Positions 3,925-22,519 of a stretch of 55,935 nt of DNA are shown piece by piece. Each line of letters opens with the position of its first letter. The stretch's first letter is position 1. Under the pieces are notes generated by a model. It had not been told where the DNA came from. It was given only the letters and a program-made list of their open reading frames with translations, and did no database searches. Location of the stretch: the NCBI GenBank assembly GCA_964556685.1, contig CAZKWX010000005.1:1-55935 (forward strand). The letters run 5' to 3'. Made by a program: the position numbers and the translations under genes. This DNA comes from an uncultured Bdellovibrionales bacterium (GTDB lineage: Bacteria; Patescibacteriota; Minisyncoccia; Moranbacterales; DUUL01).

Positions 3925-4947
3925 TTATTCCCTCTTCGTCATCACCTTTTTTGCTACGTCCCACATTTCGTCTCTTTGTTTTACTTCCTTCAGCCAATAC
4001 CACCACTCTGATCCCCAGAGATAGCTTTCTTCAAAGCCGGTGGCCTGGGCATATTCGATAATCTCTTTGAACTTTTGCGGATTCATTGACTTGTATTGCT
4101 CTTCAACTGAAATGTGTGAAATCCAATCAGGCCCCCAGGGTTCAGCTTGAAGTTCAGAAATGATAATATTTTCTTGAGAGGCAAAGGTTTCAATCATCCA
4201 AGCTTTGATGCGGAAAAATCTGGGTCCGATGGGATATTTGATATAGCCATATGGTTCTTTGTAAATGATTCGATAGAGGGTGGTGCCAAAAATGTCTGCT
4301 CTTTTGGCTGCTTGATACCAAAGGCTCAATTCTCCACTGTCATTGACCATGATCGGCTTTGTGTCATTCAGCTTCTTTACCTGTTCAATCTCTCTGTCAA
4401 CCAATTCGCTATCGATTGCTCCTTCCGGACAGTTGCCAAACGGCAAAAAGGGCTCGTTTTCGACTTGCCAAATGATGATGTTTTCGTTGTGCTTATATCG
4501 ATTTACCAACTCTCCTTCATAGGCTATCAAAGATGCTTCTCTTCGTTTTTTGTCATTCATATAGAAAGCGGGAATGAAACATTCTGGCCAGCGAGGTGCC
4601 TTGATTCCAAAAGCCAAAACAATTTTTGTGTTGCGCTTGGTTGCTTCTTCGATCTGCCAATCCAAATCAGAAAAGTCATATTTCCCTTTTTCTTTTTCAA
4701 TTTCGGTCCAATAGGCGGCAATTCTGATTTTTTCTGGTTGCAATTCATCTAGAATTGTCTCATAGGTTTTTTTCCAATCCAATCCCAAGTCCCTGGCATA
4801 GACACTAGAAAAGGAAACGTGAAATGTCATGTCTTCGTTCTTATCCTTGACGGGCCAATTGAAAGCTAACAACAGCAAACCAACAATCATCAGAATGAAC
4901 AGGATGATTTTAAAAAGGATTTTGAAGATGAATTTAATTAGAGACAT
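3925..4947 (-). CDS. membrane-anchored clan GH-A glycoside hydrolase (beta-galactosidase/GH5/GH42-like)
   Basis: WQVENEP acid/base motif, SELQAEPW nucleophile region, YDFSDLDWQI; likely ATG start at 4947. Confidence 0.8.
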   Translation of the reverse strand: MSLIKFIFKILFKIILFILMIVGLLLLAFNWPVKDKNEDMTFHVSFSSVYARDLGLDWKKTYETILDELQPEKIRIAAYWTEIEKEKGKYDFSDLDWQIEEATKRNTKIVLAFGIKAPRWPECFIPAFYMNDKKRREASLIAYEGELVNRYKHNENIIIWQVENEPFLPFGNCPEGAIDSELVDREIEQVKKLNDTKPIMVNDSGELSLWYQAAKRADIFGTTLYRIIYKEPYGYIKYPIGPRFFRIKAWMIETFASQENIIISELQAEPWGPDWISHISVEEQYKSMNPQKFKEIIEYAQATGFEESYLWGSEWWYWLKEVKQRDEMWDVAKKVMTKRE

Positions 4948-5010
4948 GGATGGTATTTGTGATATATGATATATGATTTTAAATTTAATTAGCACAAACT
5001 CTTTGTCAAA

Positions 5011-5919
5011 CTAAATCATGACTAATATGATCCCGACTACTACTAATACGGCACCAATCGCTTTATAAAGGGTGTTTTTTCGCTCCAGATTCTCTTGGAA
5101 AGCTTCTTTGAAATAGAAACTTAGAATGATTGAGAGAATGAAAACGAAAAGGTATTGAACTGAAGAAAGTGCGTTGACAATGGCCACACTGCCAATGGCA
5201 ATACTATAGCTAATCATCACAGTCGCTACACCAGCCAAGGCTTTGACTATCATTGTCCAACCAAAATGTTTAGCATGTCTTTTGTTATCTCTTTTTTTGA
5301 GCAGATCAACGACCCTCTCACGATAGCTAGCAAACAGCAGCAGGAAGAGTGTCATGCCAACAATTCCAATGCGGGAATAAATATAGACACTAACGAAATT
5401 ATGTCCCGAAAATTGATCGAAGGAATATTTCATCAGCACCAGAGAAACTGCCATCAAAATTCCAGCCAAGGCCACTTTCTTCCAACCACGAAAAAATCTT
5501 CCTTTGTAATATTTGAATGAAATGAAAAAACCTCCCATGATCAAGAGCATGATTCCCCAGATGTCCTGGGTGGTGAACTCTTCTCCCAGAAAAAGCGCCG
5601 AAAGAATTAGCGTGGTTAAGGTCGAGGTGGCACCGACCAGCACAAAGACTCTCGAAGCTCCCCACTTTTTCAAGCACATGAACAAAAGAGCCAGGTAGCC
5701 GAAAAAAACCACTCCCGAAATCACTGCGATCCAAAAAATTCCATAGCCTGGCCAAGCCAATCCGAAAGGAGCCAGCACCCAAGCAAAAAGCGAAAGAATT
5801 CCAATATAGAAAAGGTAAAGCTTCCAGCTCTTCACTTTGCCAGAAATCAAAAACTTGTTGGCCACTGACTCAATGGCCAAGAGAAAATAGGCTAAAATTG
5901 ATACGCTTATCCACTCCAA
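5011..5919 (-). CDS. EamA/DMT family transporter
   Basis: 10 TM helices in two repeats, LFLGEEF motif. Confidence 0.8.
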   Translation of the reverse strand: MEWISVSILAYFLLAIESVANKFLISGKVKSWKLYLFYIGILSLFAWVLAPFGLAWPGYGIFWIAVISGVVFFGYLALLFMCLKKWGASRVFVLVGATSTLTTLILSALFLGEEFTTQDIWGIMLLIMGGFFISFKYYKGRFFRGWKKVALAGILMAVSLVLMKYSFDQFSGHNFVSVYIYSRIGIVGMTLFLLLFASYRERVVDLLKKRDNKRHAKHFGWTMIVKALAGVATVMISYSIAIGSVAIVNALSSVQYLFVFILSIILSFYFKEAFQENLERKNTLYKAIGAVLVVVGIILVMI

Positions 5920-6000
5920 ACTAGAAGAATTAAGATTTATGGTTTGTTTTTATTCGGGACATGATTGGCTTATTTCTTCTCTGCCAATGCCTTGGATCTT

Positions 6001-6055
6001 TCCCCTCCTTAGAAAGGAGGTGCTGAATTTACCTGAGGTGAATTCAGGGGTGGTT
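6001..6055. repeat. palindromic element, family A (CCCCTCCTT..AAGGAGG..GGGGTGGTT)
   Basis: Hairpin immediately downstream of DUF559 gene. Confidence 0.75.
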
Positions 6056-6058
6056 GAT

Positions 6059-6442
6059 TCATCCACTCCTCAATTTTTCTATTGTCATATATAAGTCGTC
6101 GACTACTCCCCCTAAATTAGTAACGACTTCACTGTTTGTATAACGCTTAATCTCTATACCCTGCTTTTTAATAAAATTCCCTCTTCTCTTGTCTCTTTCT
6201 TCGGCTGTCTCGTTTAAAAAATGACTATCCCCATCAATTTCAACGGCTAAATTCAACTCGGGACAATAAAAATCAACTATATAGTTTCCGATTCCGTGTT
6301 GTCTTCTAAATTTACAACCCGTTTGTTTTCCTTTCAATTTTGACCACAGAATAACTTCGGCTTTTGTCAAATTGTTCCTAAGTTTCTTTCTAATCTTTTT
6401 TTGTTTTTCAAGGTTGTGGATTCTTGGTTTATGTTTTATCAT
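6059..6442 (-). CDS. DUF559 / Vsr-like endonuclease domain protein
   Basis: LRNNLTKAEVILWSKL, KFRRQHGIGNYIVDFYCPELNLAVEIDGDSH, RDKRR motifs. Confidence 0.9.
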   Translation of the reverse strand: MIKHKPRIHNLEKQKKIRKKLRNNLTKAEVILWSKLKGKQTGCKFRRQHGIGNYIVDFYCPELNLAVEIDGDSHFLNETAEERDKRRGNFIKKQGIEIKRYTNSEVVTNLGGVVDDLYMTIEKLRSG

Positions 6443-6471
6443 TTTTTTAGTCTTCTTTCAGGAAACCTTTC

Positions 6472-6556
6472 AACCCCTCCTACGCCTCCCCTTTCTGAGG
6501 GGAGGATTTATTGTGTTGCTTTCCCCTCCTTGGAAAGGAGGGGCGAAGGGGTGGTT
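6472..6556. repeat. two palindromic elements, family A
   Basis: AACCCCTCC..CTCCCCTTTCTGAGGGGAG and TCCCCTCCTTGGAAAGGAGGGG..GGGGTGGTT upstream of DUF559 gene. Confidence 0.75.
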
Positions 6557-6567
6557 GATTTCGAATT

Positions 6568-7755
6568 TCAACTTTCTAAACCATTCTCTCTGATTATTTT
6601 CTGATAATAGTAGTAGCTTGGTCGTGGTTTACGTTCCATTGTTCGATAGTCCATTTCACAAAGACCAAATTTATAATCATATCCATGATGCCATTCAAAG
6701 TTGTCAATCAAAGACCAATGAAAATATCCATTGATCTGCGCTCCACCATCGATTGCTTTTTTTAGTGACCTTAGGTGATTTTCAATAAATTCTTTTCTAA
6801 AAGCATCTTTTTTATCAGCCAATCCGTTTTCTGAAATATAAACTGGTTTTTGGTAATCTTTCCAGGCCTTCATGACTATTTCATATAAGCCTCTGGGATA
6901 AATACCCCAATCTAAATCAGATATTTCTTCTCCCTCTCTAAAAGTCAATGCAAATGGTTTTTTAAGCTGAAAAGATATCCTGAAATAATAATCTATGCCA
7001 ATAAAATCCTGAAAATCATTTATGTCACTGAAAAAATTCCAAATGTACCATTTTTCTAGTCTCTTAGCTATTCGATTCAAAAACCCCTTGCCTTTAATTG
7101 ATTCATATATTAATGACAATTGAGTTATCCCCACGGGAACATCTTGATACTTTTTGATCGTCTCATAACATGCCTTATGGGCCGCGACCATATTTTTTCT
7201 TGCCCTTTTATATTTTATAAAACTTCTATATCCAGGAGGTCGATATTTTCTTATATACCCTGAAGTCAAATACATCTGAGGTTCGTTCATTGTGACTATC
7301 AAATCAATCTCTTCGCCTAGCTCCTTTGTCACCTTTTCACAATAACGCGCAAAAAACTCTACCGACTCTTTTTTGTGCCAACCATAGTTTTCACTAAACC
7401 ATTTTGGATTGGTCCAATGCCAAAGAGTCACCACTCGCTTCATATTTCTTCTTTTCAAATCTTGCAAAACTTTTCGATAGTGTTCAATCGCCTCAGATGA
7501 AAAATGGCCTTCGCTTGGTTCGATGCGAGACCATTCAAGAGACAAACGGAAAGCATTACAGCCAAGATTTTGGGCCAATTCATGATCAAGGGGATAGCGA
7601 TTCCAGCTGTCGCAGGCCCAGCCAGATTTATCTTTTGTTTTCCCCTGCTGTTCCCACTCCCACCAATCATTGTTTTTATTGTTGCCTTCCACTTGGTGAG
7701 AAGAATAGGCCACCCCCCAAAGAAACTTGTCTGGAAATTTAAGTAGTTTGGACAT
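6568..7755 (-). CDS. glycoside hydrolase family 1 (beta-glucosidase)
   Basis: FPDKFLWGVAYSSHQVEG, TMNEP, ISENG, WSLIDNFEW motifs. Confidence 0.93.
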   Translation of the reverse strand: MSKLLKFPDKFLWGVAYSSHQVEGNNKNNDWWEWEQQGKTKDKSGWACDSWNRYPLDHELAQNLGCNAFRLSLEWSRIEPSEGHFSSEAIEHYRKVLQDLKRRNMKRVVTLWHWTNPKWFSENYGWHKKESVEFFARYCEKVTKELGEEIDLIVTMNEPQMYLTSGYIRKYRPPGYRSFIKYKRARKNMVAAHKACYETIKKYQDVPVGITQLSLIYESIKGKGFLNRIAKRLEKWYIWNFFSDINDFQDFIGIDYYFRISFQLKKPFALTFREGEEISDLDWGIYPRGLYEIVMKAWKDYQKPVYISENGLADKKDAFRKEFIENHLRSLKKAIDGGAQINGYFHWSLIDNFEWHHGYDYKFGLCEMDYRTMERKPRPSYYYYQKIIRENGLES

Positions 7756-8308
7756 AAGCCAGAAGAATAATCAACGAAATTATAAAACCAATGAATTCAA
7801 CTATTGCTATTGGATGCCCCTTGAAATAGATATTTTTTACCCAATTGGGATCACCATGCTTCCTTACGCATCTTTTTTGTTCCTCGTCATCAAAAGAAAA
7901 AATTAATTTCCGCAATCCTTTTTTCCTTCTTCTAGAGTATAAATAAAAAAAGGCATAATTCTTTTTCGAAAAAGGGTAAAGCCATTTGATACCCCAACCA
8001 ATTCCGATGCTGTCGTGGATGAAATGAAAAAGAGAAGATAGAAAAAAAGCAACTGCCCAGACTGATCCAAAAAATATAAAAGTGATAAGTACTCCTAACG
8101 GCAAATACAGTAGAGGGTAATGGATAAAATTGCGATGTATGTGATCATATTTTGTATCCTCTCTTTTCGGATAGAAATACAAAAAATCAACATCAGGCAA
8201 AACTGCCACTAATACTGAAAAAATCAATAGTCCGATTGTTAAATCGACTGAGAAAATAATACAAGAAATTATTGCGGCTAAAATTCCTAGGCCAAAATCT
8301 AAAAACAT
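7739..8308 (-). CDS. inner-membrane metal-dependent hydrolase (YbcI/LexA-binding family)
   Basis: LPDVD, HRNFIHYP, HFIHD motifs with TM helices. Confidence 0.75.
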   Translation of the reverse strand: MFLDFGLGILAAIISCIIFSVDLTIGLLIFSVLVAVLPDVDFLYFYPKREDTKYDHIHRNFIHYPLLYLPLGVLITFIFFGSVWAVAFFLSSLFHFIHDSIGIGWGIKWLYPFSKKNYAFFYLYSRRRKKGLRKLIFSFDDEEQKRCVRKHGDPNWVKNIYFKGHPIAIVEFIGFIISLIILLAYVQTT

Positions 8309-8380
8309 CTTCTCGAATCAATTTATTATCTTAACTCTTCCTTTGTATCTTTTCACTTTTATATTTGATTTTTAATTTTG

Positions 8381-8893
8381 TTAAACTATAGCTTCAATGC
8401 TTCGTAATGCTTCCTCAAAAACACCCAGCACCCGCTTGGCTTCTTCAAGAGAAAGCTCGTAGTTTTCGTCTTGAACAATTTGATTTTTAACTTTATTGGC
8501 TTCTTTAATTCCTTCAAGATTATCCATGTGAGCTGGTAAAATGCTATCCAACTTTTCACCTAATGTGTCGCCGTCATAGCCGGCAACGTCAAGAATTCCA
8601 TTGAGCATGCTGGCAGCTTCCAAAATTGCCGCTTTCCACTTGTTGGGATCGTCTGATGCGGCCAGAGCTTTAATTCCGTCCCATCTTTTTTGAGCTTTTC
8701 CTCTGATTTGGGGTCGATCAAGACCAACTGTAAACACCAGCAAATATTTCAACTTTATAAACCGATAGACCAATAGGATCAACGCAGCCACCATTAAAAA
8801 CAAATAAAAGCCCATCAAAAATCTCAATCCCACGAAAATGTTAGATTGTTCAAGAGTGGCTATAATATTATCAAAAAATTCTAAAATTCCCAT
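8381..8893 (-). CDS. hypothetical membrane protein
   Basis: One TM helix plus helical domain; co-oriented with the operon. Confidence 0.7.
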   Translation of the reverse strand: MGILEFFDNIIATLEQSNIFVGLRFLMGFYLFLMVAALILLVYRFIKLKYLLVFTVGLDRPQIRGKAQKRWDGIKALAASDDPNKWKAAILEAASMLNGILDVAGYDGDTLGEKLDSILPAHMDNLEGIKEANKVKNQIVQDENYELSLEEAKRVLGVFEEALRSIEAIV

Positions 8894-8989
8894 TTTAGAG
8901 ACTGGTTAATAAATAAACCTTCTTTGCTCTATTTTACTATAGAGTTGTCTTTCTCACAATCTAGTTTTCGTTTATCTCCCGTTTTGTTT

Positions 8990-11095
8990 TTATTTCTTCA
9001 GTAGTACTTTTTTGAGCTTGATGATTTCATCTCTGACCAAGGCAGCTTTTTCAAATTCCAGTTTTTTGGCTGCTTCTTTCATTTCTTTTTCTCGAAAAGT
9101 AATATATTTCTTGATTTCTTCTTGCGATTCAAACTGCATCACGGGATCTTTGGGCAGAAGATCTTCTGCCCCTACAGTTTCAAAATCAACAATTGACTTG
9201 ATCTTCTTTCTAATTGTCTGGGGAGTGATATCATGTTTCTTGTTGTATTCAATTTGTAGTTTTCTTCTTCTCTCGGTCTCATCGATGGCTCGTTTTATTG
9301 AACCGGTGATTTGATCGGCATAGAGAATCACTCGACCACTAATATTTCTCGCTGCTCGCCCAATGGTTTGAATTAACGATGTTTCTGAGCGCAAGAACCC
9401 TTCTTTGTCAGCATCCAAAATGGCCACCAATGAGACTTCAGGAAGGTCCAATCCTTCTCGAAGAAGATTGACTCCCACCAAAACATCAATCTTCCCCTTG
9501 CGCAAATTTTCCAAGATTTTAATTCGATCCAACGTGCCTACTTCACTGTGAAGATATTCTGTTTTGACTCCCGTCTCTTCTTTGAGATATTCTGAAAGAT
9601 CCTCAGCCATTTTTTTGGTCAAAGTAGTGATCAAAACTCGCTCTTTTTTGGCCACAATTTTTTCAATCTCACTGATCACATCTTTGACCTGGCTTTCACA
9701 AGGTCGAATGTTAATTTCTGGATCGACCAAGCCAGTGGGGCGAACAATTTGTTCGACAACACTGGATTCAAATCCCCCTGAAAAATTGGACTCGCTAGCT
9801 CGTCTCGATTTTTCTTCCCCCTTTTCCAAAGGGGGAAATTCATTTGACTTACTCTTTTCAACTTCCAGTTTCCGGATTCCGGATTCCGATATTTTTAATT
9901 CATATTCAGATGGTGTGGCTGACATATAGATAGCCTGGTTGATTTTTCCCTCAAATTCAGCAAATTTCAGCGGTCGATTGTCAAAAGCACTCGGCAATCT
10001 AAAGCCATAGCCCACCAAGTTTTCTTTGCGAGAATAATCTCCACCAAACATGGCTCCTAGCTGCGGAATAGTAACATGAGACTCATCAATCACCGTCAAA
10101 AAATCATCTGGGAAATAGTCAATTAATGTGTAGGGCGGTTCACCTGGCTTTCGACCGCTCAGATACAACGAATAATTCTCAATCCCGCTGACATAGCCGA
10201 TCTCCTTCATCATTTCCAAGTCATGTTTGGTTCGGCGTTGGATTCTTTCTGCTTCAACAATTTTATTTTCTTTCTTAAAAAATCTCACTTGTTTTTTCAT
10301 TTCAGCCTCGATTTGTTCAAGAGAATTTTCCATGATTGGTTCTGGCACTACGAAATGCTTGGCTGGAAAGATGGAAACTTTTTCCAAATCTTCTGAGGTC
10401 ACCTCTCCAGTCAGATGTTCATATTCATAAATCTTCTTGATCACTCCGCTTTCCATCTGCACTCGAATCACGATTTCCCGATCTGGTCGCATGATTTCAA
10501 AAGTTTCGCCTTTGGCTCGAAACTTGGCTCGCATCAAAACATCGGAGCGAGAATATTGAAGCCGGACCAATTCAGTAATCAATTCATCCCGATCAATTTT
10601 CTGTCCTTTTTCCAAATTAAACATAATGCTTTCATAGAACTCGGGAGAACCCAGACCATAGATGCAAGAAACACTAGCCACCACAATGACATCCTGACGA
10701 TCCATCAATGCCGCCGTGGCCGCATGACGTAACCGATCAATTTCTTCGTTGATTTCCAAATCTTTTTCAATGTAGACATCAGTCGAAGGCAAATAGGCTT
10801 CTGGTTGATAGTAGTCATAATAGGAAACGAAGTATTCCACTTTGTTTTTGGGGAAAAATTGACGAAATTCACTGGCCAGTTGAGCCGCCAAGGTTTTGTT
10901 ATGAGCAATCACCAGAGTTGGCTTCTGCACTTTTTCAATCATACTGGCAATGGTGAATGTCTTTCCCGATCCAGTCACACCCAAAAGCGTCTGGTGCTGT
11001 TTTCCAGATTTAATGTTATCAGCCAGCGCTCTGATCGCCTTGGGCTGATCTCCGGCTGGTTTAAATTTTGAGATAAGTTCAAATTCTTGGTTCAT
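8990..11095 (-). CDS. uvrB: excinuclease ABC subunit B
   Basis: GDQPKAI, GVTGSGKT, SYYDYYQPEAY, DESH, NLLREGLD, C-terminal UVR domain. Confidence 0.98.
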   Translation of the reverse strand: MNQEFELISKFKPAGDQPKAIRALADNIKSGKQHQTLLGVTGSGKTFTIASMIEKVQKPTLVIAHNKTLAAQLASEFRQFFPKNKVEYFVSYYDYYQPEAYLPSTDVYIEKDLEINEEIDRLRHAATAALMDRQDVIVVASVSCIYGLGSPEFYESIMFNLEKGQKIDRDELITELVRLQYSRSDVLMRAKFRAKGETFEIMRPDREIVIRVQMESGVIKKIYEYEHLTGEVTSEDLEKVSIFPAKHFVVPEPIMENSLEQIEAEMKKQVRFFKKENKIVEAERIQRRTKHDLEMMKEIGYVSGIENYSLYLSGRKPGEPPYTLIDYFPDDFLTVIDESHVTIPQLGAMFGGDYSRKENLVGYGFRLPSAFDNRPLKFAEFEGKINQAIYMSATPSEYELKISESGIRKLEVEKSKSNEFPPLEKGEEKSRRASESNFSGGFESSVVEQIVRPTGLVDPEINIRPCESQVKDVISEIEKIVAKKERVLITTLTKKMAEDLSEYLKEETGVKTEYLHSEVGTLDRIKILENLRKGKIDVLVGVNLLREGLDLPEVSLVAILDADKEGFLRSETSLIQTIGRAARNISGRVILYADQITGSIKRAIDETERRRKLQIEYNKKHDITPQTIRKKIKSIVDFETVGAEDLLPKDPVMQFESQEEIKKYITFREKEMKEAAKKLEFEKAALVRDEIIKLKKVLLKK

Positions 11096-11195
11096 AGCTT
11101 ACTTTATGTTAGAAAGAATAATCATGATAAGCAATATATATGTTCCTGCTATAATAAGCAATAAAATCTAAATATTCGAACGAAAGGAGGACATA

Positions 11196-11582
11196 ATGGA
11201 AGAAGCTAAAAATATTTGGGTGCCTGAACCAGATGATCTAGTTGCCAGATTGATTATCGGCACGTCCATATTTCGTGCAGATCTATGCTATAGAGTCAGT
11301 CCCGATAATGATCTGACTTTCAGGTGCATAGCTTCAATTGTCAGTGGAGTTGCTGGACCTGTCTCTCAAACTTTTGTTGAGACGACGTATACAATGATTA
11401 GCCGAACTACAAAAGGATTCGTCTACAGATTCGTTGCCGGCAAAGAAATGCTTACCATTTTTAAACATCTATGGGGCAATAAAAATCAGTTGTCTTGGGA
11501 TGATTGGTTTAAGAAACTGCTCAGTTCTCCTGACGAGGAAGTCCCTGCACCCATAAAACAGACAATAAGCAGCTTGATCTAA
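11196..11582 (+). CDS. hypothetical protein
   Basis: AAGGAGG SD; followed by a hairpin and T-run. Confidence 0.65.
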   Translation: MEEAKNIWVPEPDDLVARLIIGTSIFRADLCYRVSPDNDLTFRCIASIVSGVAGPVSQTFVETTYTMISRTTKGFVYRFVAGKEMLTIFKHLWGNKNQLSWDDWFKKLLSSPDEEVPAPIKQTISSLI

Positions 11583-11688
11583 GCTCAACGAGACAATATT
11601 CTTACAGTCTACGTCCTGCTTGTTCACTATCAATGTGTCAACGAGCAGGGCGTTATTTTTTTCACTTATATTATTTTAAAGAGTATCT

Positions 11689-11853
11689 TTATTTCCTCTT
11701 CCAATCCCGAATCTCAACGGCTCCCTGTCCCTTGTCTTTGACAGTCAGCTTTTGATGCTCTTTCCAACCATACTTTTCAATCATCCACTTGGGAAGAATC
11801 ACGCAGTAGCTATAGCGTGACATTCTTTGCAGTTTTCGCACACTTGGCTTCAT
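11689..11853 (-). CDS. small AbrB/MazE/SpoVT-type DNA-binding protein (54 aa, not in ORF track)
   Basis: Manual translation MKPSVRKLQRMSRYSYCVILPKWMIEKYGWKEHQKLTVKDKGQGAVEIRDWKRK fits the swapped-hairpin pattern. Confidence 0.7.
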   Translation of the reverse strand: MKPSVRKLQRMSRYSYCVILPKWMIEKYGWKEHQKLTVKDKGQGAVEIRDWKRK

Positions 11854-11864
11854 GTTTTTTTGAT

Positions 11865-11971
11865 GTCATTTCGACCGAATCCCGCTTTAGCGGGAGAAGT
11901 GGAGAAATCTCGTGCCCTGTTATAGTTCGTGAGATCTCTCGAATCCCGGGTACTCGGGATTCGAGATGACA
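11865..11971. repeat. TGTCAT...ATGACA REPIN-like element, family B
   Basis: Terminal inverted repeats with nested hairpins. Confidence 0.75.
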
Positions 11972-12096
11972 TATTTTAATGATTTAGTGGTATATACTTT
12001 AGTATATATTAAAGTATATACTATTTTCTTTCACCCTCAAATTGACCCTAAGCTCGATTTTTGCTATATTTCAGATAATTAACCAAAACAAAAAAA

Positions 12097-12456
12097 ATGA
12101 AGTTTCTTTTAAAGGTCGTGATCTTCATCGGCGGAAACGCCTTAGCTCTTTGGGTGGCAACTCGGCTGGTGGATGGTTTTGTCTTCACTGAACCGACTTT
12201 GATCAATTTCCTTAAAGTCGGCCTGGTTTTAGGGTTGGTCAATGCCATTATTAAACCCCTCATTAATCTGATCGCCCTACCATTGCGAGTCTTGACTTTG
12301 GGACTGTTTACTGTCATCATCAACATTGGATTCCTTTATTTGGTTTCCTTTTTCTTTGACTTTTTTGTCATTGAAGGGCTTTTTGCCGCTTTCTGGGCAA
12401 TCATCGTGATGAGCTTGGTCAACTTCCTAATTTCCCTATTTTTCAAGGAGGATTAG
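12097..12456 (+). CDS. phage holin family (YvlD-like, 4 TMS) membrane protein
   Basis: GLVNAIIKP..LIALP..LTLGLF..IIN motif. Confidence 0.88.
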   Translation: MKFLLKVVIFIGGNALALWVATRLVDGFVFTEPTLINFLKVGLVLGLVNAIIKPLINLIALPLRVLTLGLFTVIINIGFLYLVSFFFDFFVIEGLFAAFWAIIVMSLVNFLISLFFKED

Positions 12457-12518
12457 CCTCCTAAAGCCGCAAACTCAACTTAATTAGAATATTTCCTTGC
12501 TAGCCTCGTAATAAATTT

Positions 12519-12737
12519 ATGAACGAAATTCTTTTATATATCCAGGTTGTGCTTTCTATTCTGCTGGTTATTAGTGTTCTTCTGCAGCAACGCGGAAGCG
12601 GCCTTTCGTCTGCCTTTGGCGGTGACTTGGCTGGTTTTCACACCAAAAGAGGAATAGAAAAATTTCTAACCATCGCCTCTGCAATTCTGGGAGCGTTTTT
12701 TATTATTAATGCCTTCGTTATAATTGTCTTGTTCTAA
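12519..12737 (+). CDS. secG: preprotein translocase subunit SecG
   Basis: VLLQQRGSGLSSAFGG...RGIEKFL. Confidence 0.93.
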   Translation: MNEILLYIQVVLSILLVISVLLQQRGSGLSSAFGGDLAGFHTKRGIEKFLTIASAILGAFFIINAFVIIVLF

Positions 12738-12845
12738 AAACGATAGAGAAATGCAAATTATTGAAAGCTTGCATTTTTTTGTCAGTTTGTATTATACTGC
12801 TCACTGCTCAATCAAAATTACTTTGAATTATAAAATACTTAATTA

Positions 12846-12967
12846 TCCCTCCCCTTCGAAAGGGGTGGCTAGGAGGGGTTCGTCAGAATGTCAGGAGTCG
12901 CCAGCCATTTTGACTAACTCCCCGAGCAAAGCTCATCCGCTTCGCTCCACTCTTACCAAGAGGGGGA
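12846..12967. repeat. family A doublet
   Basis: CCCTCCCCTTCGAAAGGGG..GGAGGGGTT ... AACTCCCCGAGCAAAGCTC..CTCTTACCAAGAGGGGG; right half nearly identical to 35451-35502. Confidence 0.8.
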
Positions 12968-13013
12968 AAAGAAATGAATTTTATAATTCAAAAAAATACA
13001 TTATACACCTCTC

Positions 13014-14735
13014 ATGTCCAAACAACTTAAAATGTCTTTTTCTTCTTCTCCTTCGAAATTCAAGCACATCGGCAAGGTGCTCACCAGAAAAGAAAAGTTT
13101 TTTCTCTATTTGGCTGTTTTCGTATTTCTTGGCTCACTGATTGCTTGGGCATTTTATTTCTATTTTTCTTCCACTCAGCAAGCACCCGATTTCGGTGGTG
13201 AATACACCGAAGGCTTGGTCGGCCAACCGCTCTATGTCAATCCAATCTTGGCTCAATCTAATGAAACTGACTCAATTTTGTCGCATTTGATTTTCTCCTC
13301 TCTCATGACCTATGATCATGAAGGAAATTTGGTGGAAGACTTGACTGAAAAATATGAAATTCAAGATGAAGGAAAGCGTTATAAGTTCAAAATAAAGGAG
13401 GGGGCCAAATGGCATGACAAAACTGAATTGACTGCCAATGACATTCTGTTCACTGTCAAACTAATCCAGGACCCAGCTTTCAAAAGTCCCCTGCGTGGAG
13501 ATTGGCAGAACATTCAAGTCTCGCTGGAAGATGATTATACCGTCGCATTCGATTTGGCCGAATCTCATGCACCTTTTCTGAACAAGTTGACCTTTGGAAT
13601 TCTCCCCCAACACATCTATGAAGAAATTCCAGCCGAAAAATTTCTTTTGACTAAACTCAATCTCGAGCCAGTTGGTTCTGGCCCCTTTGAATATTCTGAG
13701 TCGAAAAAAGATTCGGAAGACAACTTGATCTCCTATCAGCTTTTGGCTAATCCGGAATATTATGATCGTCCTGCCTATTTGGAAAAAATCACGCTTAATT
13801 TCTATTCCAGTGAAGATGAACTTTTTGATGCTTATAGCAAGAAGAAGATTAATGGATTCGGCGTGCATTCCTATGAAAAGGCCAATGATTTGAGCGCCCG
13901 AAGAGACACTCGGGTTCATGCGATGCAACTTTCTCGCTATTTCGCAATATTTTTCAACCAAACTAAGTCCGTTCCACTGGCCAAAAAAGATGTTCGAGAA
14001 GCCCTTAGATATGGAACGAATCGAGAAGAAATTTTAGAGCAAGTTTTTCAAGGTTATGCTTCAGAAGAAGTTTCTCCCATGCTCAGCTCTTTTGGTCAGT
14101 TTGAATCAAAACTGACTAGAGATGACTATCCCTATGACCCAGGGAAAGCTGAAGAAATGCTTGATCAAGCTGGTTGGAAAAAGAGCGATGATGGAATCAG
14201 AAAAAAAGATGGCGAAGTTCTTGAAGTGGCTGTGGTGACCACCAAGTGGTCAGCTCTGACCAAGACAGCTGAGCTTTTGAAAAAGCAATGGGAACAAGTT
14301 GGGGTGAGACTCAACATCACCACTCTGGAACCAGTCAACTTCCAGCAGAATTTCATCAAGCCCCGGGAATATCAATCAGTTTTGTTTGGCCAAGAATATT
14401 TTGGCAATGATCCTGACCCATATTACTTTTGGCACTCGGAACACAAAAAAGATCCTGGTCGGAACATTGCTCTCTATGACAACACTGAAGTTGACAAACT
14501 CTTGGTTGATGCCCGCAAAGAACAAGACTTGGAAAAGCGCAAAGAAAAATATGCCGAGTTTGAAAAAAAGGTCACTGCTGATGCGCCCGCTATTTTTCTC
14601 TATCGACCTTATTATGTCTTCATCACTAATGCTAAAATCAAAGGCATCGACATGATTGCTGTGGTCAGCCCCGCTCATCGCTTTGCCACCGCCAAAGATT
14701 GGTTTGTAAAAACCACTCGAGTGAAAAAAGACTAG
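13014..14735 (+). CDS. peptide ABC transporter substrate-binding protein (family 5)
   Basis: GGEYTEG, WHDK..TANDILFT, PVGSGPF, LDQAGW motifs. Confidence 0.9.
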   Translation: MSKQLKMSFSSSPSKFKHIGKVLTRKEKFFLYLAVFVFLGSLIAWAFYFYFSSTQQAPDFGGEYTEGLVGQPLYVNPILAQSNETDSILSHLIFSSLMTYDHEGNLVEDLTEKYEIQDEGKRYKFKIKEGAKWHDKTELTANDILFTVKLIQDPAFKSPLRGDWQNIQVSLEDDYTVAFDLAESHAPFLNKLTFGILPQHIYEEIPAEKFLLTKLNLEPVGSGPFEYSESKKDSEDNLISYQLLANPEYYDRPAYLEKITLNFYSSEDELFDAYSKKKINGFGVHSYEKANDLSARRDTRVHAMQLSRYFAIFFNQTKSVPLAKKDVREALRYGTNREEILEQVFQGYASEEVSPMLSSFGQFESKLTRDDYPYDPGKAEEMLDQAGWKKSDDGIRKKDGEVLEVAVVTTKWSALTKTAELLKKQWEQVGVRLNITTLEPVNFQQNFIKPREYQSVLFGQEYFGNDPDPYYFWHSEHKKDPGRNIALYDNTEVDKLLVDARKEQDLEKRKEKYAEFEKKVTADAPAIFLYRPYYVFITNAKIKGIDMIAVVSPAHRFATAKDWFVKTTRVKKD

Positions 14736-14737
14736 AA

Positions 14738-14851
14738 TTTACAGATTACAGATATGTACAAATATACAGATCGAGCCATAACAAAAATTTCGAAAGTGAA
14801 TATTTGATTTTTTGAAATATCTGTATATTTGTACATATCTGTAATCTGTAA
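14738..14851. repeat. long inverted repeat of TACAGAT-type units
   Basis: TTTACAGATTACAGATATGTACAAATATACAGAT ... ATCTGTATATTTGTACATATCTGTAATCTGTAAA; related copy at ~50722-50817. Confidence 0.75.
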
Positions 14852-14861
14852 AACATAACAA

Positions 14862-15866
14862 ATGAATAATGACTTTTCTTTTGACAAGTCCAACCTCCGG
14901 GAGGTAATTTTAAAGTATCCCAACCAAACACATCTGGGACAAGGATTTGCCAAAGATATTGAAGTTCCCAAAAGAGATTATACTGAATTGATAATCTGTG
15001 GAATGGGAGGCTCTGCTGTTCCAGCCAGTGTCTTGGTTGATTTTCTCATCAATGAGGAAGGGCAATCATTTTCTTTGCCAATTTATATCTCTCGAGGATA
15101 TTCTTTGCCTCGTGCTGCTAGCAAAAATTCGCTTGTCTTTATCTCTTCCTATTCGGGTGGCACGGAAGAACCAATCGCTTGCTTTGAAGAAGCATTGAAA
15201 AAAGAAGCTGTTATTGTGGCTTTTTCTGCTGGTGGAAAAGTTGAAGAAATGGCTAAAGAAAAAGAAGTTCCTCATGTGAAATATGAAATCACTGAATATG
15301 CTAATTTTCAGCCTCGTTATGCTACAAATTACGCTTTTGCCGCTATGCATCAAGTGTTGACAAATGCTGGACTTTGTGCTAAGGTTGACCAATTCCCTAC
15401 CTTTTCACCCGAAAAACTAGAAGAAAAAGGCAAAGAACTAGCCGGAAAAATAAAAGGCAAAACACCCATTTTTTATGCTTCTGATCGCTATAAATCACTA
15501 GCGAAATTTCTTAAGATTAAAGTTAACGAAAATACAAAAACTCCTGCCTTTTGGAATTACTATCCCGAGCTTAACCACAATGAAATGGTAGGGTTCACTC
15601 TTCCTCAAGCTGACTTTTTTGTGTTAATGATGAAAGATGGATCTGAGCACCCTCAAGTAGCAAAAAGATTTGATGCTACTTCTGCTCTCTATCAGCGAAA
15701 AGGAATTGAGACAGAAATCTTTGAACTAGAGGGAAAAACTTATTTTGAAAGACTGGTTAACGGATGCATTTTAGGAGATTGGATTTCATATTATCTGGCT
15801 AAAGAATACGATCAAGATCCAACACCAGTTGACATGGTGGAGGATTTAAAAAAGCGACTGGCTTAA
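14862..15866 (+). CDS. bifunctional phosphoglucose/phosphomannose isomerase
   Basis: GMGGS, SYSGGTEE, ENTK, PELNHNE, DPTPV motifs. Confidence 0.9.
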   Translation: MNNDFSFDKSNLREVILKYPNQTHLGQGFAKDIEVPKRDYTELIICGMGGSAVPASVLVDFLINEEGQSFSLPIYISRGYSLPRAASKNSLVFISSYSGGTEEPIACFEEALKKEAVIVAFSAGGKVEEMAKEKEVPHVKYEITEYANFQPRYATNYAFAAMHQVLTNAGLCAKVDQFPTFSPEKLEEKGKELAGKIKGKTPIFYASDRYKSLAKFLKIKVNENTKTPAFWNYYPELNHNEMVGFTLPQADFFVLMMKDGSEHPQVAKRFDATSALYQRKGIETEIFELEGKTYFERLVNGCILGDWISYYLAKEYDQDPTPVDMVEDLKKRLA

Positions 15867-15947
15867 CTTCAATAATTTTTAACAAGTCTTCATCCTCCTT
15901 CGTCTCGCTTAGCGAAACTACGGAGGACAAGTTGGTAAATCAATATA

Positions 15948-16031
15948 GGGCGAGTGGTGAAATTGGTAGACACGCATGGTTCAGGGCCGTGTTCCGCTTG
16001 CGGAATGGAGGTTCAAGTCCTCTCTCGCCCA
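15948..16031 (+). tRNA. tRNA-Leu(CAG)
   Basis: GGGCGAG...CTCGCCC-A; loop TT-CAG-GG; long variable arm. Confidence 0.95.
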
Positions 16032-16254
16032 CAAGTAGGAATAGGGAGTTTTGGTTTTTGTCCCCGCCTTGGCGGGGCAACGAAAAGCAACCCCGCACTC
16101 TCGCGTAGCGAGAAGTTTGCGGGGCGAGTCTCCCCGTTCCCACAAAGATTTATTCTTTAAACTTAATAGTAAAACTGAATAATTCTTCATAATAATTATT
16201 TAATGAGTTCGAATTCGTATATTCGTATACATTTCGTAATTCGTAAAGTAAAAA

Positions 16255-17970
16255 GTGACACCAAAAAAGAAAATTAGTATTGGCGGACGTCGCACTCCAA
16301 TTAAAAAATCTCTCAGGATCATTCCTTTGGGAGGATTGGAAGAGATCGGCCGCAATATGACTGTGCTGGAATATGGCAACGACATCATCGTTGTTGATTG
16401 TGGTTTGATGTTTCCTGAAGAGGAAATGATGGGCATCGACTACATCATTCCCAACACAGAATATCTTGAGAAAAACAAGAAAAAGATCCGTGGCGTGATC
16501 ATCACTCATGGACACTTTGACCACATCGGGGCCATTCCTCACATCATTCCTCGAATTGGCAACCCACCCATCTACACCACTGAACTCACTCGAGCGATGA
16601 TCCTGAAAAGACAAGAGGATTATAAGGATCAGGCTCCTCTGAAAGTGAAGACTGTTCGAAAGATCGATCGGATTGTTTTGGGCAGCTTTAAGGTTGAGTT
16701 TTTTCATGTTAATCACTCAATCCCTGATGCCGTTGGATTGGCCATTCACACCCCAGTGGGAACTGTGCTTCACACGGGTGATTTCAAATTCGACCACTCT
16801 CCAGTGGGAGACGCTCCAGCGGACATTTCCAAAATTGCCCGTCTGGGAACTGATGGGGTTTTGGCGTTGATGTCTGACAGCACCGGCGCTGACGAAGAGG
16901 GCTATAGCATTTCCGAATCTACCATTCAGGAAAACATTGAGCAGATTTTCCTCAATGCTAAAGGAAGGATCATCACGGCCACTTTCGCCTCACTGGTGAG
17001 TCGAATTCAGCAAATTGCAGAATTGGCAGAAAAACATGGCAGGAAACTAGTGGTCGATGGCTATTCCATGAAAAATAATGTCGAGATTGCTCGTGAACTT
17101 GGTTACATCAACGCAAAAAAATCAACTTTTATTGATGTTCGCCAAGTAAACAACTATCCTGACAACAAAATAGCCGTCTTGTGCACTGGTGCTCAAGGCG
17201 AAGGCAATGCTGTGCTGATGAGAATTGTCAATGACGAGCACCGGAACATCAAAATTCACCAGGGCGACACAATTGTTTTCTCATCTTCGGTCATTCCAGG
17301 AAATGAACGTACCGTTCAAGGCCTGAAGGACACGCTCTATCGCAAGGGCGCAGAAGTCATTCACTATAAGATGATGGACATCCATGCTGGAGGTCATGGA
17401 CGAGCGGAAGATCTCAAGATGATGATCAATTTGACCCGACCAAAATTCCTCCTTCCCATTCACGGAACCTATTACATGAGAAAAATTCATGCCAAATTGG
17501 GTGAAAGTGTGGGAGTGAAAGAAAACAACATCATTATTGGCGAGAATGGCCGAGTGATTGAGTTTGACTATCGCGGTGGCGGCAAAATGATCAGCGAAAA
17601 AGTGCCCAGCTCATATGTGATGGTTGACGGTTTGGGCGTGGGAGACGTTGGCAATGTGGTTTTGCGTGACCGTCAGATGTTGGCCAAGGATGGAATGTAT
17701 ACCATTGTGGCCATCATTGACCGAAAAACAAAAAAAGTGGTCGGGGAACCACAAGTTACTTCCCGAGGCTTCATCTATGTGAAGGAAAACTTTGATCTGG
17801 TGAATGCCACTAAGAAGCGATTGAAGAAAGTTGTGGCTAAGTCGACAGGGAAAGATGCCGAGCCAAATTGGGATCATGTCAGAAACGCTATTCGCGATGA
17901 CATTGGACAATTTTTGTTCCAAAAAAGCGGTCGGAGACCAATGGTCTTACCGGTGATTATTGAGGTTTAA
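16255..17970 (+). CDS. rnj: ribonuclease J
   Basis: PLGGLEEIGRNM, THGHFDHIG, HTGDFK, HAGGH, RRPMVLPVI. Confidence 0.96.
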   Translation: MTPKKKISIGGRRTPIKKSLRIIPLGGLEEIGRNMTVLEYGNDIIVVDCGLMFPEEEMMGIDYIIPNTEYLEKNKKKIRGVIITHGHFDHIGAIPHIIPRIGNPPIYTTELTRAMILKRQEDYKDQAPLKVKTVRKIDRIVLGSFKVEFFHVNHSIPDAVGLAIHTPVGTVLHTGDFKFDHSPVGDAPADISKIARLGTDGVLALMSDSTGADEEGYSISESTIQENIEQIFLNAKGRIITATFASLVSRIQQIAELAEKHGRKLVVDGYSMKNNVEIARELGYINAKKSTFIDVRQVNNYPDNKIAVLCTGAQGEGNAVLMRIVNDEHRNIKIHQGDTIVFSSSVIPGNERTVQGLKDTLYRKGAEVIHYKMMDIHAGGHGRAEDLKMMINLTRPKFLLPIHGTYYMRKIHAKLGESVGVKENNIIIGENGRVIEFDYRGGGKMISEKVPSSYVMVDGLGVGDVGNVVLRDRQMLAKDGMYTIVAIIDRKTKKVVGEPQVTSRGFIYVKENFDLVNATKKRLKKVVAKSTGKDAEPNWDHVRNAIRDDIGQFLFQKSGRRPMVLPVIIEV

Positions 17971-17991
17971 TCTTCTTATAGCTTGTAATCC

Positions 17992-18022
17992 AAAAAAAAC
18001 AGAGCACCCTGCTCTGTTTTTT
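17992..18022 (+). terminator. intrinsic terminator
   Basis: AAAAAAACAGAGC-accct-GCTCTGTTTTTT. Confidence 0.75.
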
Positions 18023-18135
18023 GATTTGCTATCTCCTAAGGCTGTTAAACTAAAAACATATTTACTTTTCTAAGTATTGTGGTAATCTTTTTTTTAAGTA
18101 CTTATAAGGCGCTTATGGACGGAAAGGAGGCCGTT

Positions 18136-18261
18136 ATGGCCAAAAAGATGAGTCTTCATGGGAAACCGAAAAGCTGTGATAACCAGCCTAATTCAAGGGC
18201 CTGTAAAAAAATGAAAAAGAAGAACAGTAGCACTTGTCGAAACTGCAGATTTGCGAATTAA
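18136..18261 (+). CDS. small basic Cys-rich protein (41 aa)
   Basis: AAGGAGG SD; four Cys including CRNC. Confidence 0.45.
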   Translation: MAKKMSLHGKPKSCDNQPNSRACKKMKKKNSSTCRNCRFAN

Positions 18262-18414
18262 AAAGTTTTCTAAGCGCCTTTTTAAAAACAGAAGTGGGTC
18301 CGACCAAATTAGTGTCGGACCGCTTTTATTTAAAAGAAGTGCGTCTTCATAAAAAATACCGTAAAAAAATAGTATATACCATGGTATATACTACCGTACG
18401 TACGTAAAATGAAA

Positions 18415-20688
18415 CTAAATCTTCTTGAGTGGCGCTATGCCTTTAGCCAGCTTTTTCACCCCGTGCTTGGGAAAAGCCACTGAAACAGTGGCGTCATCTT
18501 GAGCCACCACAATCCCCTCTCCAAAATCTGCATGGGAAACTCGATCGCCGTCACTGAAATTGACCTTAGAAGCAGCGGGACTGGTCCCTCTCTTAGGAAA
18601 AGAGGGGTTGGGGGAGATTTTTTGTTTATTCTTAAAATCCCCCCGTTCCGACAAGTCGGAACGACCCCCTTTTTCTAAGGGGGTAGAACCTTCCTCCTTA
18701 TCCTCGATCCAGTCACCAAACTCCTGCTCGGTGTAAATTTCTTCAAATAGTTCGTTGTCAACTTCGTCAATGAAACGAGAACGAACTGAAACTTGGGTGG
18801 AGCCATAGATGTTGCGAGCGCTGGTGTAGATCAAATGCGCTTTTTGTTTAGCTCGAGTGATACCCACATAGCAAAGCCGGCGTTCTTCTTCCATTTCTTT
18901 CTCATTGAGTGTGGCTCTTGAATGTGGAAACAACCCTTCCTCCATCCCCACCAGAAAAACCACATCATATTCCAATCCTTTGGCTGAATGCAAGGTCATC
19001 AGAGGAACCATTTCTTTTTCCTCCAAATCTCGATCGACTTGAGAAACCAGAGCAACTTCTTCAAGAAACAGCTGCAAGCCATTCTTTTCATCATCAAACT
19101 TGTTGGCTACGGTCAAAAGCTCCAGAACATTTTCCGCTCGCACTGCTCCTTCTTCACTCATCTTGTCAAGCATCTCTTTATAGCCGCTGCGCTGAAAAAC
19201 TTCTTCTATTATTTTTGAAGGTCTGTTTTTCTTGGCATATTCTTGCAGTCTACTGATGATTTTGGCAAAGTCATGTAGGGCTTTGATCTTGCTTGCTTGT
19301 AGTGAACACCCATGGGTGTTCACTACATCGCCATCAAGATTCTCAATAGTCTTCAGGACATCTCCGGCAAATTTTTCACTGGCCTTCAAGACCTTAGCCA
19401 CTGTTTTTTCGCCCAAACCTCGAGCTGGAATGTTGATGATCCGTTCAAAGCTAACTTTGTCTCGAGGATTAATTAAAAAATATAGATAAGCCAGAATGTC
19501 TTTGATTTCTTTACGTTGATAGAATTTGATTCCACCGATGATCTTGTAGGGCACACCAAATTTCAAGAAAATTTCTTCCAAAGCTCGTGATTGAGCATTG
19601 GTTCGATAGAGCACAGCAAAATCATCCAGTTTGTTTTTCAATTCACTCTGCAATTTGTTGATTTGAGCTACCACAAATTGAGCTTCATCCTTTTCATCAA
19701 AAGCTTCATAGAGCGTCAAAAGATTGCCCGCATCATTATCAGTCCAAAGTTTTTTCTTTTTTTGATTTACATTTTTTTCTATGACGTTTTGAGCTGCATT
19801 GAGAATGTTCTTTGTACTTCTATAATTCTGTTCAAGTAGCACGACTTTTGCCTCTGGATAATCTTTTTCAAAATCTAAGATGTTATTTATATCTGCGCCT
19901 CTCCACATATACACACTTTGAAAATCGTCCCCCACCACGCAAATGTTTTTGTATTTTGTAGCCAATAGTTTCAAAAACATATATTGAGCATGGTTGGTGT
20001 CTTGATATTCATCCACCATGATGTAGCGGAAAAGTTCCTGATAGCGATCCAGAACATCAGGATATTTTTGAAATAGTTGCACGGTGATCATGATCAAGTC
20101 ATCAAAATCCAAGGCATCAGCTTCTTTGAGGTTCTTGGCATATTGGTGGAAACATTTGGCCACCCTTTCTTCAAAAAAACTGCCCATCATTTCCTCATAT
20201 CCTTTGGCATCAATCAATTTGTTCTTGGCATCAGAAATGGCATTGAGAATGGCTTGAGGTTTGACGTCTTCTTGCGAAATGGAAAGCTCTTTCATCACTC
20301 TTTTCATCGCTGCTAGTTGGTCTTGGTCATCATAGATGACAAAATTCTTAGCATAGCCCATTTTTTCCACTTCCTTGCGCAAAATGCGCACGCAGATTGA
20401 GTGGAAGGTTCCAATGTGAGGAAGATATTGAGAATAGGGCGGAGTTTCTTTGGGCAGACCCAAGAGCTCTTTCACTCGATCCATCATTTCTCCGGCTGCT
20501 TTGTTGGTGAAAGTCACTGCTAAAATATTCTTCGGCGGCACTCTTTCTTCTTTGACTAAAAAAGCCACCCGAAAAGTCAGTGCGCGGGTTTTCCCACTTC
20601 CGGCTCCGGCAATAATCAAAACCGGCCCTTCGGTCTGAAGAACAGCCTCTTTTTGTTTTTTGTTCAGTTGATCAAGAAGTTTGGTCAT
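18415..20688 (-). CDS. pcrA: ATP-dependent DNA helicase PcrA/UvrD
   Basis: AGAGSGKT, TFTNKAA, DEYQD, LEQNYRST, TLHSAKGLE, EERRLCYVGITRA, Tudor-like C-terminus. Confidence 0.96.
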   Translation of the reverse strand: MTKLLDQLNKKQKEAVLQTEGPVLIIAGAGSGKTRALTFRVAFLVKEERVPPKNILAVTFTNKAAGEMMDRVKELLGLPKETPPYSQYLPHIGTFHSICVRILRKEVEKMGYAKNFVIYDDQDQLAAMKRVMKELSISQEDVKPQAILNAISDAKNKLIDAKGYEEMMGSFFEERVAKCFHQYAKNLKEADALDFDDLIMITVQLFQKYPDVLDRYQELFRYIMVDEYQDTNHAQYMFLKLLATKYKNICVVGDDFQSVYMWRGADINNILDFEKDYPEAKVVLLEQNYRSTKNILNAAQNVIEKNVNQKKKKLWTDNDAGNLLTLYEAFDEKDEAQFVVAQINKLQSELKNKLDDFAVLYRTNAQSRALEEIFLKFGVPYKIIGGIKFYQRKEIKDILAYLYFLINPRDKVSFERIINIPARGLGEKTVAKVLKASEKFAGDVLKTIENLDGDVVNTHGCSLQASKIKALHDFAKIISRLQEYAKKNRPSKIIEEVFQRSGYKEMLDKMSEEGAVRAENVLELLTVANKFDDEKNGLQLFLEEVALVSQVDRDLEEKEMVPLMTLHSAKGLEYDVVFLVGMEEGLFPHSRATLNEKEMEEERRLCYVGITRAKQKAHLIYTSARNIYGSTQVSVRSRFIDEVDNELFEEIYTEQEFGDWIEDKEEGSTPLEKGGRSDLSERGDFKNKQKISPNPSFPKRGTSPAASKVNFSDGDRVSHADFGEGIVVAQDDATVSVAFPKHGVKKLAKGIAPLKKI

Positions 20689-20712
20689 TTTAATTTATCA
20701 TCCCGGCTATGT

Positions 20713-21837: not shown

Positions 21838-21914
21838 TTTACACGTCCTTTCTCCCAGTCACGGGATGAAAAATTAAAATTTAGGCATAGTGCCCGAAAA
21901 ATAGAAAACAATAC

Positions 21915-22515: not shown

Positions 22516-22519
22516 ATTG

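Follow-up and report, generated by a model that had tools for sequence, protein, structure and literature searches.

A DUF559 nuclease gene between inward-facing triplex-motif repeats suggests an enzyme partner for the BoxC/PIT/TM repeat family

Why should the gene for a small nuclease lie between copies of a hairpin repeat that is scattered through the surrounding genome? The question is raised by positions 6002–6505 of contig CAZKWX010000005.1 (contig C5 of assembly GCA_964556685.1), which was analysed over its whole length of 55,935 nucleotides (nt) and is called the window here. The genome, labelled G000 in comparisons, comprises 994 kb in 23 contigs and has a G+C content of 40%. A preliminary description of the window had proposed that the gene, which encodes a DUF559 protein, and the repeats form an autonomous/non-autonomous pair analogous to that of RAYT transposases and REP repeats. 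We find that the pairing of a Vsr-like nuclease gene with repeats of the known triplex-motif (TM) family, also called BoxC or PIT, is real, class-specific and widely recurring. Hundreds of bacterial genomes contain triplex-motif repeats, which have been linked with genome instability; to our knowledge, neither an enzyme nor a spreading route is known for them, and the family, known for 30 years, has never been explained. DUF559 is a very common domain for which we know of no assigned role. The position of a DUF559 gene between inward-facing triplex-motif units suggests that this protein is the enzyme partner of the BoxC/PIT/TM family.

The DUF559 gene (6059–6442, minus strand) encodes 127 amino acids (aa) and matches PF04480 with an E-value of 2.5e-27 (95.3 bits; curated cut-off 20.6). 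At its 3' end, adjoining the stop codon, is a unit on the plus strand (6002–6055) that is made up of a pyrimidine arm CCCCTCCTT, the loop AGA, a purine arm AAGGAGG, a linker that forms a 26 nt hairpin, and a third segment GGGGTGGTT(GA). At the 5' end is a unit on the minus strand (6466–6505) that reads CCTCCCCT-CAGAA-AGGGGAGG-CGTA-GGAGGGGTTGA on that strand. These units belong to classes B and B2 (see below), respectively, and form the two inward-facing ends of the cassette. An additional solo class B unit on the plus strand, CCCCTCCTT-GGA-AAGGAGGGG-CGAA-GGGGTGGTT, lies outside the cassette at 6523–6556, 12 nt past the stop codon of the neighbouring GH1 beta-glucosidase gene (6568–7755, minus strand). 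The preliminary description was right to place hairpin repeats on both sides of the gene, but the two copies of the flanking pair it described, 6002–6055 and 6523–6556, are a direct repeat on the plus strand. The inverted partner of 6002–6055 is the third unit, 6466–6505, which had been left unseparated. Two occurrences of GGGGTGGTT were found in the window (0.17 expected), both in the direct repeat, and the hairpin pattern was matched three times (0.00 expected).

The repeat had been described as a palindrome. It does have hairpin arms, but a further part had been missed: the pyrimidine arm and purine arm are followed by a third segment of G, A and T that is the mirror image of the purine arm, not its complement, with A either kept or changed to T. 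Purine arm and third segment pair as AAGGAGGGG with GGGGTGGTT, AAGAGGGGG with GGGGGAGTT, AAGGGGAGG with GGAGGGGTT and AAAGGAGGG with GGGAGGATTT, and the mirror relation is kept across about ten different stem sequences. The genome-wide count that had been proposed earlier returned 151 hairpins with a pyrimidine-only 5' arm, against 1–7 in five Markov shuffles. An exact mirror of the purine arm (A read as A or T) was present within 55 nt in 91/151 hairpins, while a direct copy was present in 20/151 and the mirror pattern at 47/3020 random places. The linker between purine arm and third segment is 3–5 nt (TTA, CTA, TCA) in most units and a self-pairing hairpin of 17–42 nt in many. As the linker is either short or a self-contained hairpin, the third segment would always be brought back to the purine arm.

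Class II intrastrand-triplex motifs consist of a 5' pyrimidine domain, a purine domain and an antiparallel 3' third domain that form C-G*G and T-A*A or T-A*T triads (PMC4666352). The units of this genome have the pyrimidine domain, the complementary purine domain and the antiparallel third domain, and by their sequence they are class II purine-motif intrastrand-triplex motifs of the BoxC/PIT/TM family. The preliminary description had seen the dispersed family but not that it belongs to this known group. As in TMECO, the Escherichia coli form of the motif, the parts follow in the same order, copies are many and dispersed, and the short second loop, often TTA or CTA here, is T-T-A in type A. Inverted TM pairs always combine two different types (PMC4666352), and the same is true here. 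The stems differ, being CCCCTCCTT, CCCCCTCTT, TCCCCCTTT and others, and the window units do not conform to the published TMECO pattern CCCTCNCCC-N3-6-GGGNGAGGG-N3-GGGNGAGGG; cassette ends in relatives (loci L004 and L046) and in other phyla do, as does a unit beside E. coli ycjD. Many units here have the 17–42 nt hairpin in the second loop. The ITxF search of Holder et al. (2015) used loops of 1–6 nt (PMC4666352), and such a search would miss these hairpin-carrying variants. In that study, single-stranded oligonucleotides of the E. coli motif formed a stable triplex in vitro. The main text names no partner protein for TM, and the word 'endonuclease' is absent from it (PMC4666352).

Three other structural readings of the units were rejected. 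No T-run follows the hairpins, which rules out terminators; just two G-runs are present per unit on one strand, which rules out a G-quadruplex; and Watson–Crick pairing between third segment and pyrimidine arm would leave two mismatches per eight positions (by eye). A search of Rfam at its gathering thresholds gave no match at the repeat units; its only matches were to tRNAs and rRNAs and, within the 23S rRNA gene, to two group I introns (window 53933–54202 and 54628–54878; 79.5 and 62.3 bits).

When the genome was searched with PF04480, five DUF559 genes were found. Every one of them is preceded by a forward unit and followed by a reversed one, and the third segments point towards the gene. 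Counted within 120 nt, an inward pair is present at 5/5 DUF559 genes versus 1 of approximately 960 other called genes (Fisher p 8.7e-13); two of the five were positioned by Pfam coordinates, the simple open reading frame caller having merged them into longer frames. Among inward-facing unit pairs with an inner distance of 200–1000 nt, of which there are seven, five enclose DUF559. Of the remaining two, one surrounds a prephenate-dehydratase-like gene and the other the 3' part of miaA. The excess over background density on which the preliminary description had made its proposal depend is therefore evident. The alternative, that ordinary terminator or regulatory stem-loops lie beside DUF559 by chance, could appeal to the 113 of 965 called genes with one end no more than 120 nt from a unit. 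It is already contradicted by the enrichment of inward pairs, here and across phyla (32-fold; see below). The lack of a T-run and the presence of 29 hairpins inside open frames speak against it as well, and earlier work cited in PMC4666352 found no promoter or terminator activity of these repeats. We consider it very improbable.

The units fall into classes by the tail past the third segment. Class A (..GAGTTAG) has 25 members, E (..GATTTTAAG or ..CAG) 26, C (..GATTTGA) 24, F (..GGGGTTAG) 19, D 3 and B2 2; class B (GGGGTGGTTGA) was counted at 7, which leaves out the unit at 6002, where the script misplaced the third segment. A further 28 were left unassigned, and some of these are chance hairpins. 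The cassette ends are A/A on contig C1, E/E for two copies on C8, C/C on C13 and B2/B in the window. A quick maximum-likelihood tree was built from 18 DUF559 proteins of this genome and 11 relatives, with four class labels assigned by eye. Tail class changes four times on it, compared with a mean of 9.3 when labels were shuffled, and none of 2000 shuffles gave a number as low. A cassette in G026, a genome from another family, has B2 upstream and B downstream, like that in the window. Nuclease lineages each retain a repeat class of their own, and protein and repeat co-diverge.

The C13 gene (17362–18129 of that contig; locus L020, 1480–2247) reads through its downstream unit, which is translated as the peptide SNPPVSPFAKGG, and continues as one 255 aa frame into a cysteine-rich protein with an RNHCP motif.

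The association extends beyond this genome. PF04480 was detected in 12/40 relatives, one of which has it solely in a helicase fusion. For the 16 stand-alone or in-frame DUF559 genes in relatives, the script placed inward units on both sides of 11 and on one side of three more; two that it scored as having none (L006 and L011) have degenerate units by eye. At several of the 3.3 kb loci taken from relatives, the two units flanking DUF559 are the only ones present. TM-pattern matches were more numerous in the 11 relatives with a stand-alone DUF559 (median 11) than in the 29 without (median 1; Mann–Whitney p 0.005, though related genomes are not independent). Among 80 DUF559 loci of many phyla, drawn from GTDB species-representative genomes with a six-sequence alignment as query and thus biased to one DUF559 lineage, 41 have units on both sides and 16 on one side. 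Unit density at these loci is 32-fold higher beside the gene (156 in 28.3 kb) than further off (33 in 193 kb), and many of the units carry the E. coli-type core CCCTCTCCC/GGGTGAGGG. The pairing, for which the preliminary description had proposed a test across genomes, recurs in both samples.

In E. coli K-12, the DUF559 gene is ycjD (so annotated), which lies between fabI and sapF. One full TMECO-pattern unit is present approximately 170 nt downstream, unit remnants are found at the stop codon, and there is a duplicated 3' gene fragment. In some phylogroups, ycjD is reported to occupy the place of the eefRABCD operon (PMC12817139). DUF559 domain-containing proteins are enriched (odds ratio 14) among predicted targets of programmed inversion, where Eco57I-type and N-6 methylases are listed beside them (PMC9881135). 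This fits inverted-end cassettes lying inside methylase-type genes, and in G026 two DUF559 copies are carried in frame within other genes, one for a DNA methylase and one for a type I specificity protein (L019, L021). No paper joining DUF559 to triplex repeats was found among the main texts searched, a set that excludes subscription-only papers, among them the original BoxC/PIT reports.

Most units in the genome are solo; there are 17 inverted doublets of 85–173 nt, each made from two different units. When doublets are aligned with the C1 cassette, both of its ends match, as do 20–25 nt beyond each unit on the inner side, with scores of 46–85 versus shuffle maxima of 33–38. For this reason, the gene-less doublets are two cassette ends joined without the gene. 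The two C8 cassettes share sequence exactly over the span bounded by the outer bases of their two hairpins, and nothing beyond it; their branch lengths in the tree are 0.045 and 0.064. A GIY-YIG-like small nuclease gene (C8, ~34120–34350; by eye) ends just before the upstream unit of the cassette at C8:33696. The C8 pair bears on the possibility that units and DUF559 are cargo of an unrelated transposase that uses further, outer ends, with DUF559 having no role in mobility. Candidate outer ends exist, as 12 class A and F units have an AATTAYRARR motif 10–25 nt outside the hairpin, pointing inward (window 12826 and 24330, and ten others). The motif is limited to A/F, and the two C8 copies share nothing outside their hairpins, which makes a passenger role improbable.

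When a profile of the 18 DUF559 proteins was compared with the PDB, it matched 3HRL, an 'endonuclease-like protein' (E 8e-33), and 3R3P, a 'mobile intron protein' (E 8.6e-5). The latter we take to be the Vsr-like (EDxHD) homing endonuclease I-Bth0305I. Sixteen columns are invariant in the 18 sequences, including D57, E68, G71, H74, D84 and R100, and D70 is nearly so; the invariant acidic and histidine residues are presumably the Vsr active-site positions. A survey of PD-(D/E)xK nucleases places VSR, DUF559, 3hrl and 3r3p in one clade together with a group I intron homing endonuclease, and Vsr, the characterised relative of the family, is described there as a repair enzyme (PMC3424549).

That relationship, the conservation of catalytic-type residues and the location of the third segment 5–12 nt before the ATG in several cassettes, where it resembles a ribosome-binding site, would suit a host function. 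DUF559 would then be a housekeeping or repair nuclease that processes replication-stalling hairpins or triplexes, its gene sitting among units for autoregulation or where units are tolerated. The distribution in relatives is too patchy for this (12/40), and the genomic sites differ in every genome. The DUF559 protein tree is at odds with the genome groups, one 1 Mb genome holds several divergent paralogues, each with its own unit class, and the copies in G026 are in frame inside restriction–modification genes. We regard a host function as improbable.

Comparison of empty and filled orthologous sites, which the preliminary description had put forward as a check, gave signs of insertion. The GH1 gene and a DMT transporter gene are adjacent in 20 of the 22 family relatives that have the GH1 gene. 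In 11 of the 20, the gap between them is 14–68 nt, compared with 651 nt in the window. The gap in the other nine is 108–669 nt and holds other repeats or a small unrelated gene. This comparison, made at 38–63% protein identity, leaves the exact insertion point unreadable. In UvrB, residues ~402–442 (window ~9767–9889), which contain the unit at 9773–9837, have no counterpart in 11 relatives, where the matched pieces abut. In an alignment, an insert of approximately 39 aa is absent from 4/5 relatives, while another, different insert occupies this position in the fifth. The cassette and the units are insertions relative to their orthologues. Metagenome contigs from four runs of two studies, examined over window 4501–24500, included no cassette-less allele; these contigs are short and break at repeats. 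One of 1461 nt covers 5520–6980 unchanged, and the joints observed link repeat copies at other loci.

The spacer between the GH1 and DMT genes looks like an insertion hotspot. In the closest relative (G017, locus L024), it contains a different small gene, apparently encoding a four-helix bundle (by eye), among A-rich tandem repeats. In three other relatives (L034, L043 and L044) it is filled by copies of GGATTCCCGCCTTCGCGGGAATGACA, which are similar to a second hairpin repeat family in the window, a TGTCATCCCCGCGCAGGCGGGGATCC-like inverted repeat at 20713–20792.

TMECO repeats are described as always intergenic. Here, 29 hairpins lie in frames that are open for at least 150 nt on both sides, although at least three of them (on C9, C10 and C15) look like chance hairpins. 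The genes concerned include leuS, dnaE, uvrA, uvrB, pcrA, pheT and ligA, as well as miaA, rarA, rsmI, rluD, tilS and argS. No strand bias was seen by eye among in-frame units, nine being antisense and seven sense relative to the coding strand. The leuS frame (1064 aa; C1:133242–136436, minus strand; L153, 43–3237) has two in-frame units, one of which lies next to an internal Ser_hydrolase domain (PF06821, residues 496–643, E 1.1e-12), a non-DUF559 cargo in an essential gene. In miaA (C7:21549–22646; L154), two in-frame units (21784–21888) separate the P-loop region from the remainder of the protein. Rickettsia palindromic elements (RPE) are likewise inserted in frame in protein genes. Like the units described here, they are short and palindromic, and conserved genes tolerate them as peptide inserts; they are a different sequence family, and the present repeats also differ in enclosing a candidate enzyme gene.

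Taken together, we lean towards reading window 6002–6505 as a selfish cassette with non-autonomous derivatives, working in the manner of REP and RAYT but based on a Vsr-like nuclease. A TM unit, the DUF559 gene and an inverted TM unit would constitute the cassette, and the approximately 130 gene-less units, whether solo or in doublets, would be its non-autonomous relatives. The G-rich strand of a unit would fold into a hairpin plus third strand when the DNA is single-stranded or strained. The nuclease would recognise the unit of its own class, probably via the class-specific tail beside the third strand, and nick or cut next to it. Repair by copying from another unit-bearing locus could then carry the gene into gene-less doublets, and the same copying could spread units to new sites, including in-frame positions within genes. 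We infer the activity of the nuclease, its target and its part in driving the spread. As a broader and more tentative proposal, BoxC/PIT/TM repeats in general may be the ends and non-autonomous offspring of a widespread selfish element. Its driver would be a DUF559 nuclease that reads folded three-stranded DNA, with classes cognate to each nuclease lineage and with in-frame colonisation even of essential genes.

REP/REPIN repeats have RAYT transposases (TnpA-REP), which are HUH Y1 tyrosine enzymes. The likeness is in the single enzyme gene between inverted copies of its own repeat class, the many gene-less singlets and inverted doublets, and the several enzyme lineages per genome, each with its own class. 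The enzyme here is a PF04480 protein of the Vsr-like PD-(D/E)xK type, and the units have a third mirror segment and are frequently in frame inside genes. The system works like REP–RAYT and is not a member of it. A miniature inverted-repeat transposable element and its autonomous partner share ends and subterminal sequence, and this is seen here; such an element would also be expected to have a target-site duplication, of which neither C8 copy gives a sign.

Several observations weigh against the cassette reading. A hydrolytic Vsr-like nuclease cannot perform strand transfer alone. The lack of a visible target-site duplication at the C8 copies counts here, though there is no closely related empty site for comparison. 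No cassette in the assembly has ends of class F (19 units) or class D (3), though F pairs with A in doublets. At 95 bits, the window DUF559 scores below its four paralogues against Pfam (111–116 bits); it has the longest end branch in the tree of 18 proteins (1.29), and its repeat class has few copies in the genome; for these reasons, it may be old or decaying. No unit was found by script at 23 of the 80 loci across phyla. Repeat-rich relatives in which no stand-alone DUF559 was found include G004 (64 matches, 95% complete), G015 (96; a helicase-fused DUF559-like domain only), G009 (36), G017 (25), G021 (16) and G029 (11), and these six genomes are 88–100% complete. E. coli K-12 has 23 TMECO units and one ycjD, with degenerate flanks. 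Double-stranded E. coli motif stayed duplex, no protection from dimethyl sulfate was seen in vivo, and BLAST gave no association of TM with mobile elements (PMC4666352). The autonomous/non-autonomous pair suggested in the preliminary description thus gains from the gene–repeat pairing, the joined-end doublets and the lineage-specific classes, which RAYTs also show with REPs, and loses where repeat-rich relatives have no DUF559.

The same genomes and the single ycjD of E. coli, together with the predominance of solo units, would be expected if DUF559 were a free-standing homing-type gene that cuts empty doublets and is then copied into them, the units serving as homology arms. In that case the units would arise and spread by a different route, for example through another enzyme or through errors that the host makes in replicating or repairing structured DNA. 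The sequence relation to the 3R3P intron homing endonuclease chain and the consistently central place of the gene in a doublet-like frame also favour homing. I-Bth0305I has a related catalytic domain and a selfish, site-invading lifestyle, which is here proposed. The window gene differs in being free-standing with structured repeat ends, and the intron or intein location by which homing endonucleases are recognised is not seen at the window site, where Rfam detects no intron. Co-divergence of unit class with protein lineage across families suggests instead that the gene and its two ends have had a common history. The homing and cassette models predict identical static architecture, and no computed result separates them cleanly; we consider homing alone unlikely.

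Under the cassette reading, class-matched pairing merges two open questions, how the repeats spread and what DUF559 does, into one: does the nuclease bind and cut its own folded repeat? If so, a partnership between a hydrolytic Vsr-like nuclease and non-B DNA would be added to those of the REP–RAYT type, and it would account for the peptide inserts that bacteria with small genomes have in their housekeeping proteins.

Units of the same architecture were found at all of the other window sites where the preliminary description had reported the repeat. They share the structural family, but their classes differ from the GGGGTGGTTGA class that flanks the window gene, and the in-frame location of several, in uvrB, pcrA/uvrD and an rluD-like gene, had been missed. 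The statement that they are usually inverted doublets holds at five sites. Those at 12848–12967 (a class F unit and a class A-like unit with a linker hairpin, with the outer AATTAYRARR motif), 24213–24319 (F and A, with outer AATTACGAAA ends) and 42668–42792 (F and A-like) are gene-less. So is the doublet at 35342–35502, which has linker hairpins in both units and was recognised by eye, its stems being too imperfect for the strict script. That at 18586–18683 (class E) is in frame in the pcrA/uvrD helicase gene (18418–20694, minus strand), between the UvrD_C and tudor domains. On their sequence, A/F doublets with AATTAYRARR would be elements of approximately 150 nt with extra terminal inverted repeats.

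The other four sites hold single units. The class C unit at 9773–9837 (minus strand), which has a 34 nt linker hairpin, is in frame in uvrB (8996–11092, minus strand). Two are inside the same rluD-like open frame, a class D-like unit at 26647–26684 (plus strand; third segment AGAGGGGGTGG) and a unit with a linker hairpin and a class C tail at 26814–26861 (minus strand), which was found by eye where the strict script was silent. The fourth, at 48155–48188 (minus strand; by eye), is degenerate. Inverted repeats of another kind are also present in the window: a perfect 34 nt inverted repeat, TTTACAGATTACAGATATGTACAAATATACAGAT, with a 47 nt spacer lies at 14738–14852, and a related 16 nt inverted repeat is found at 50745–50803.

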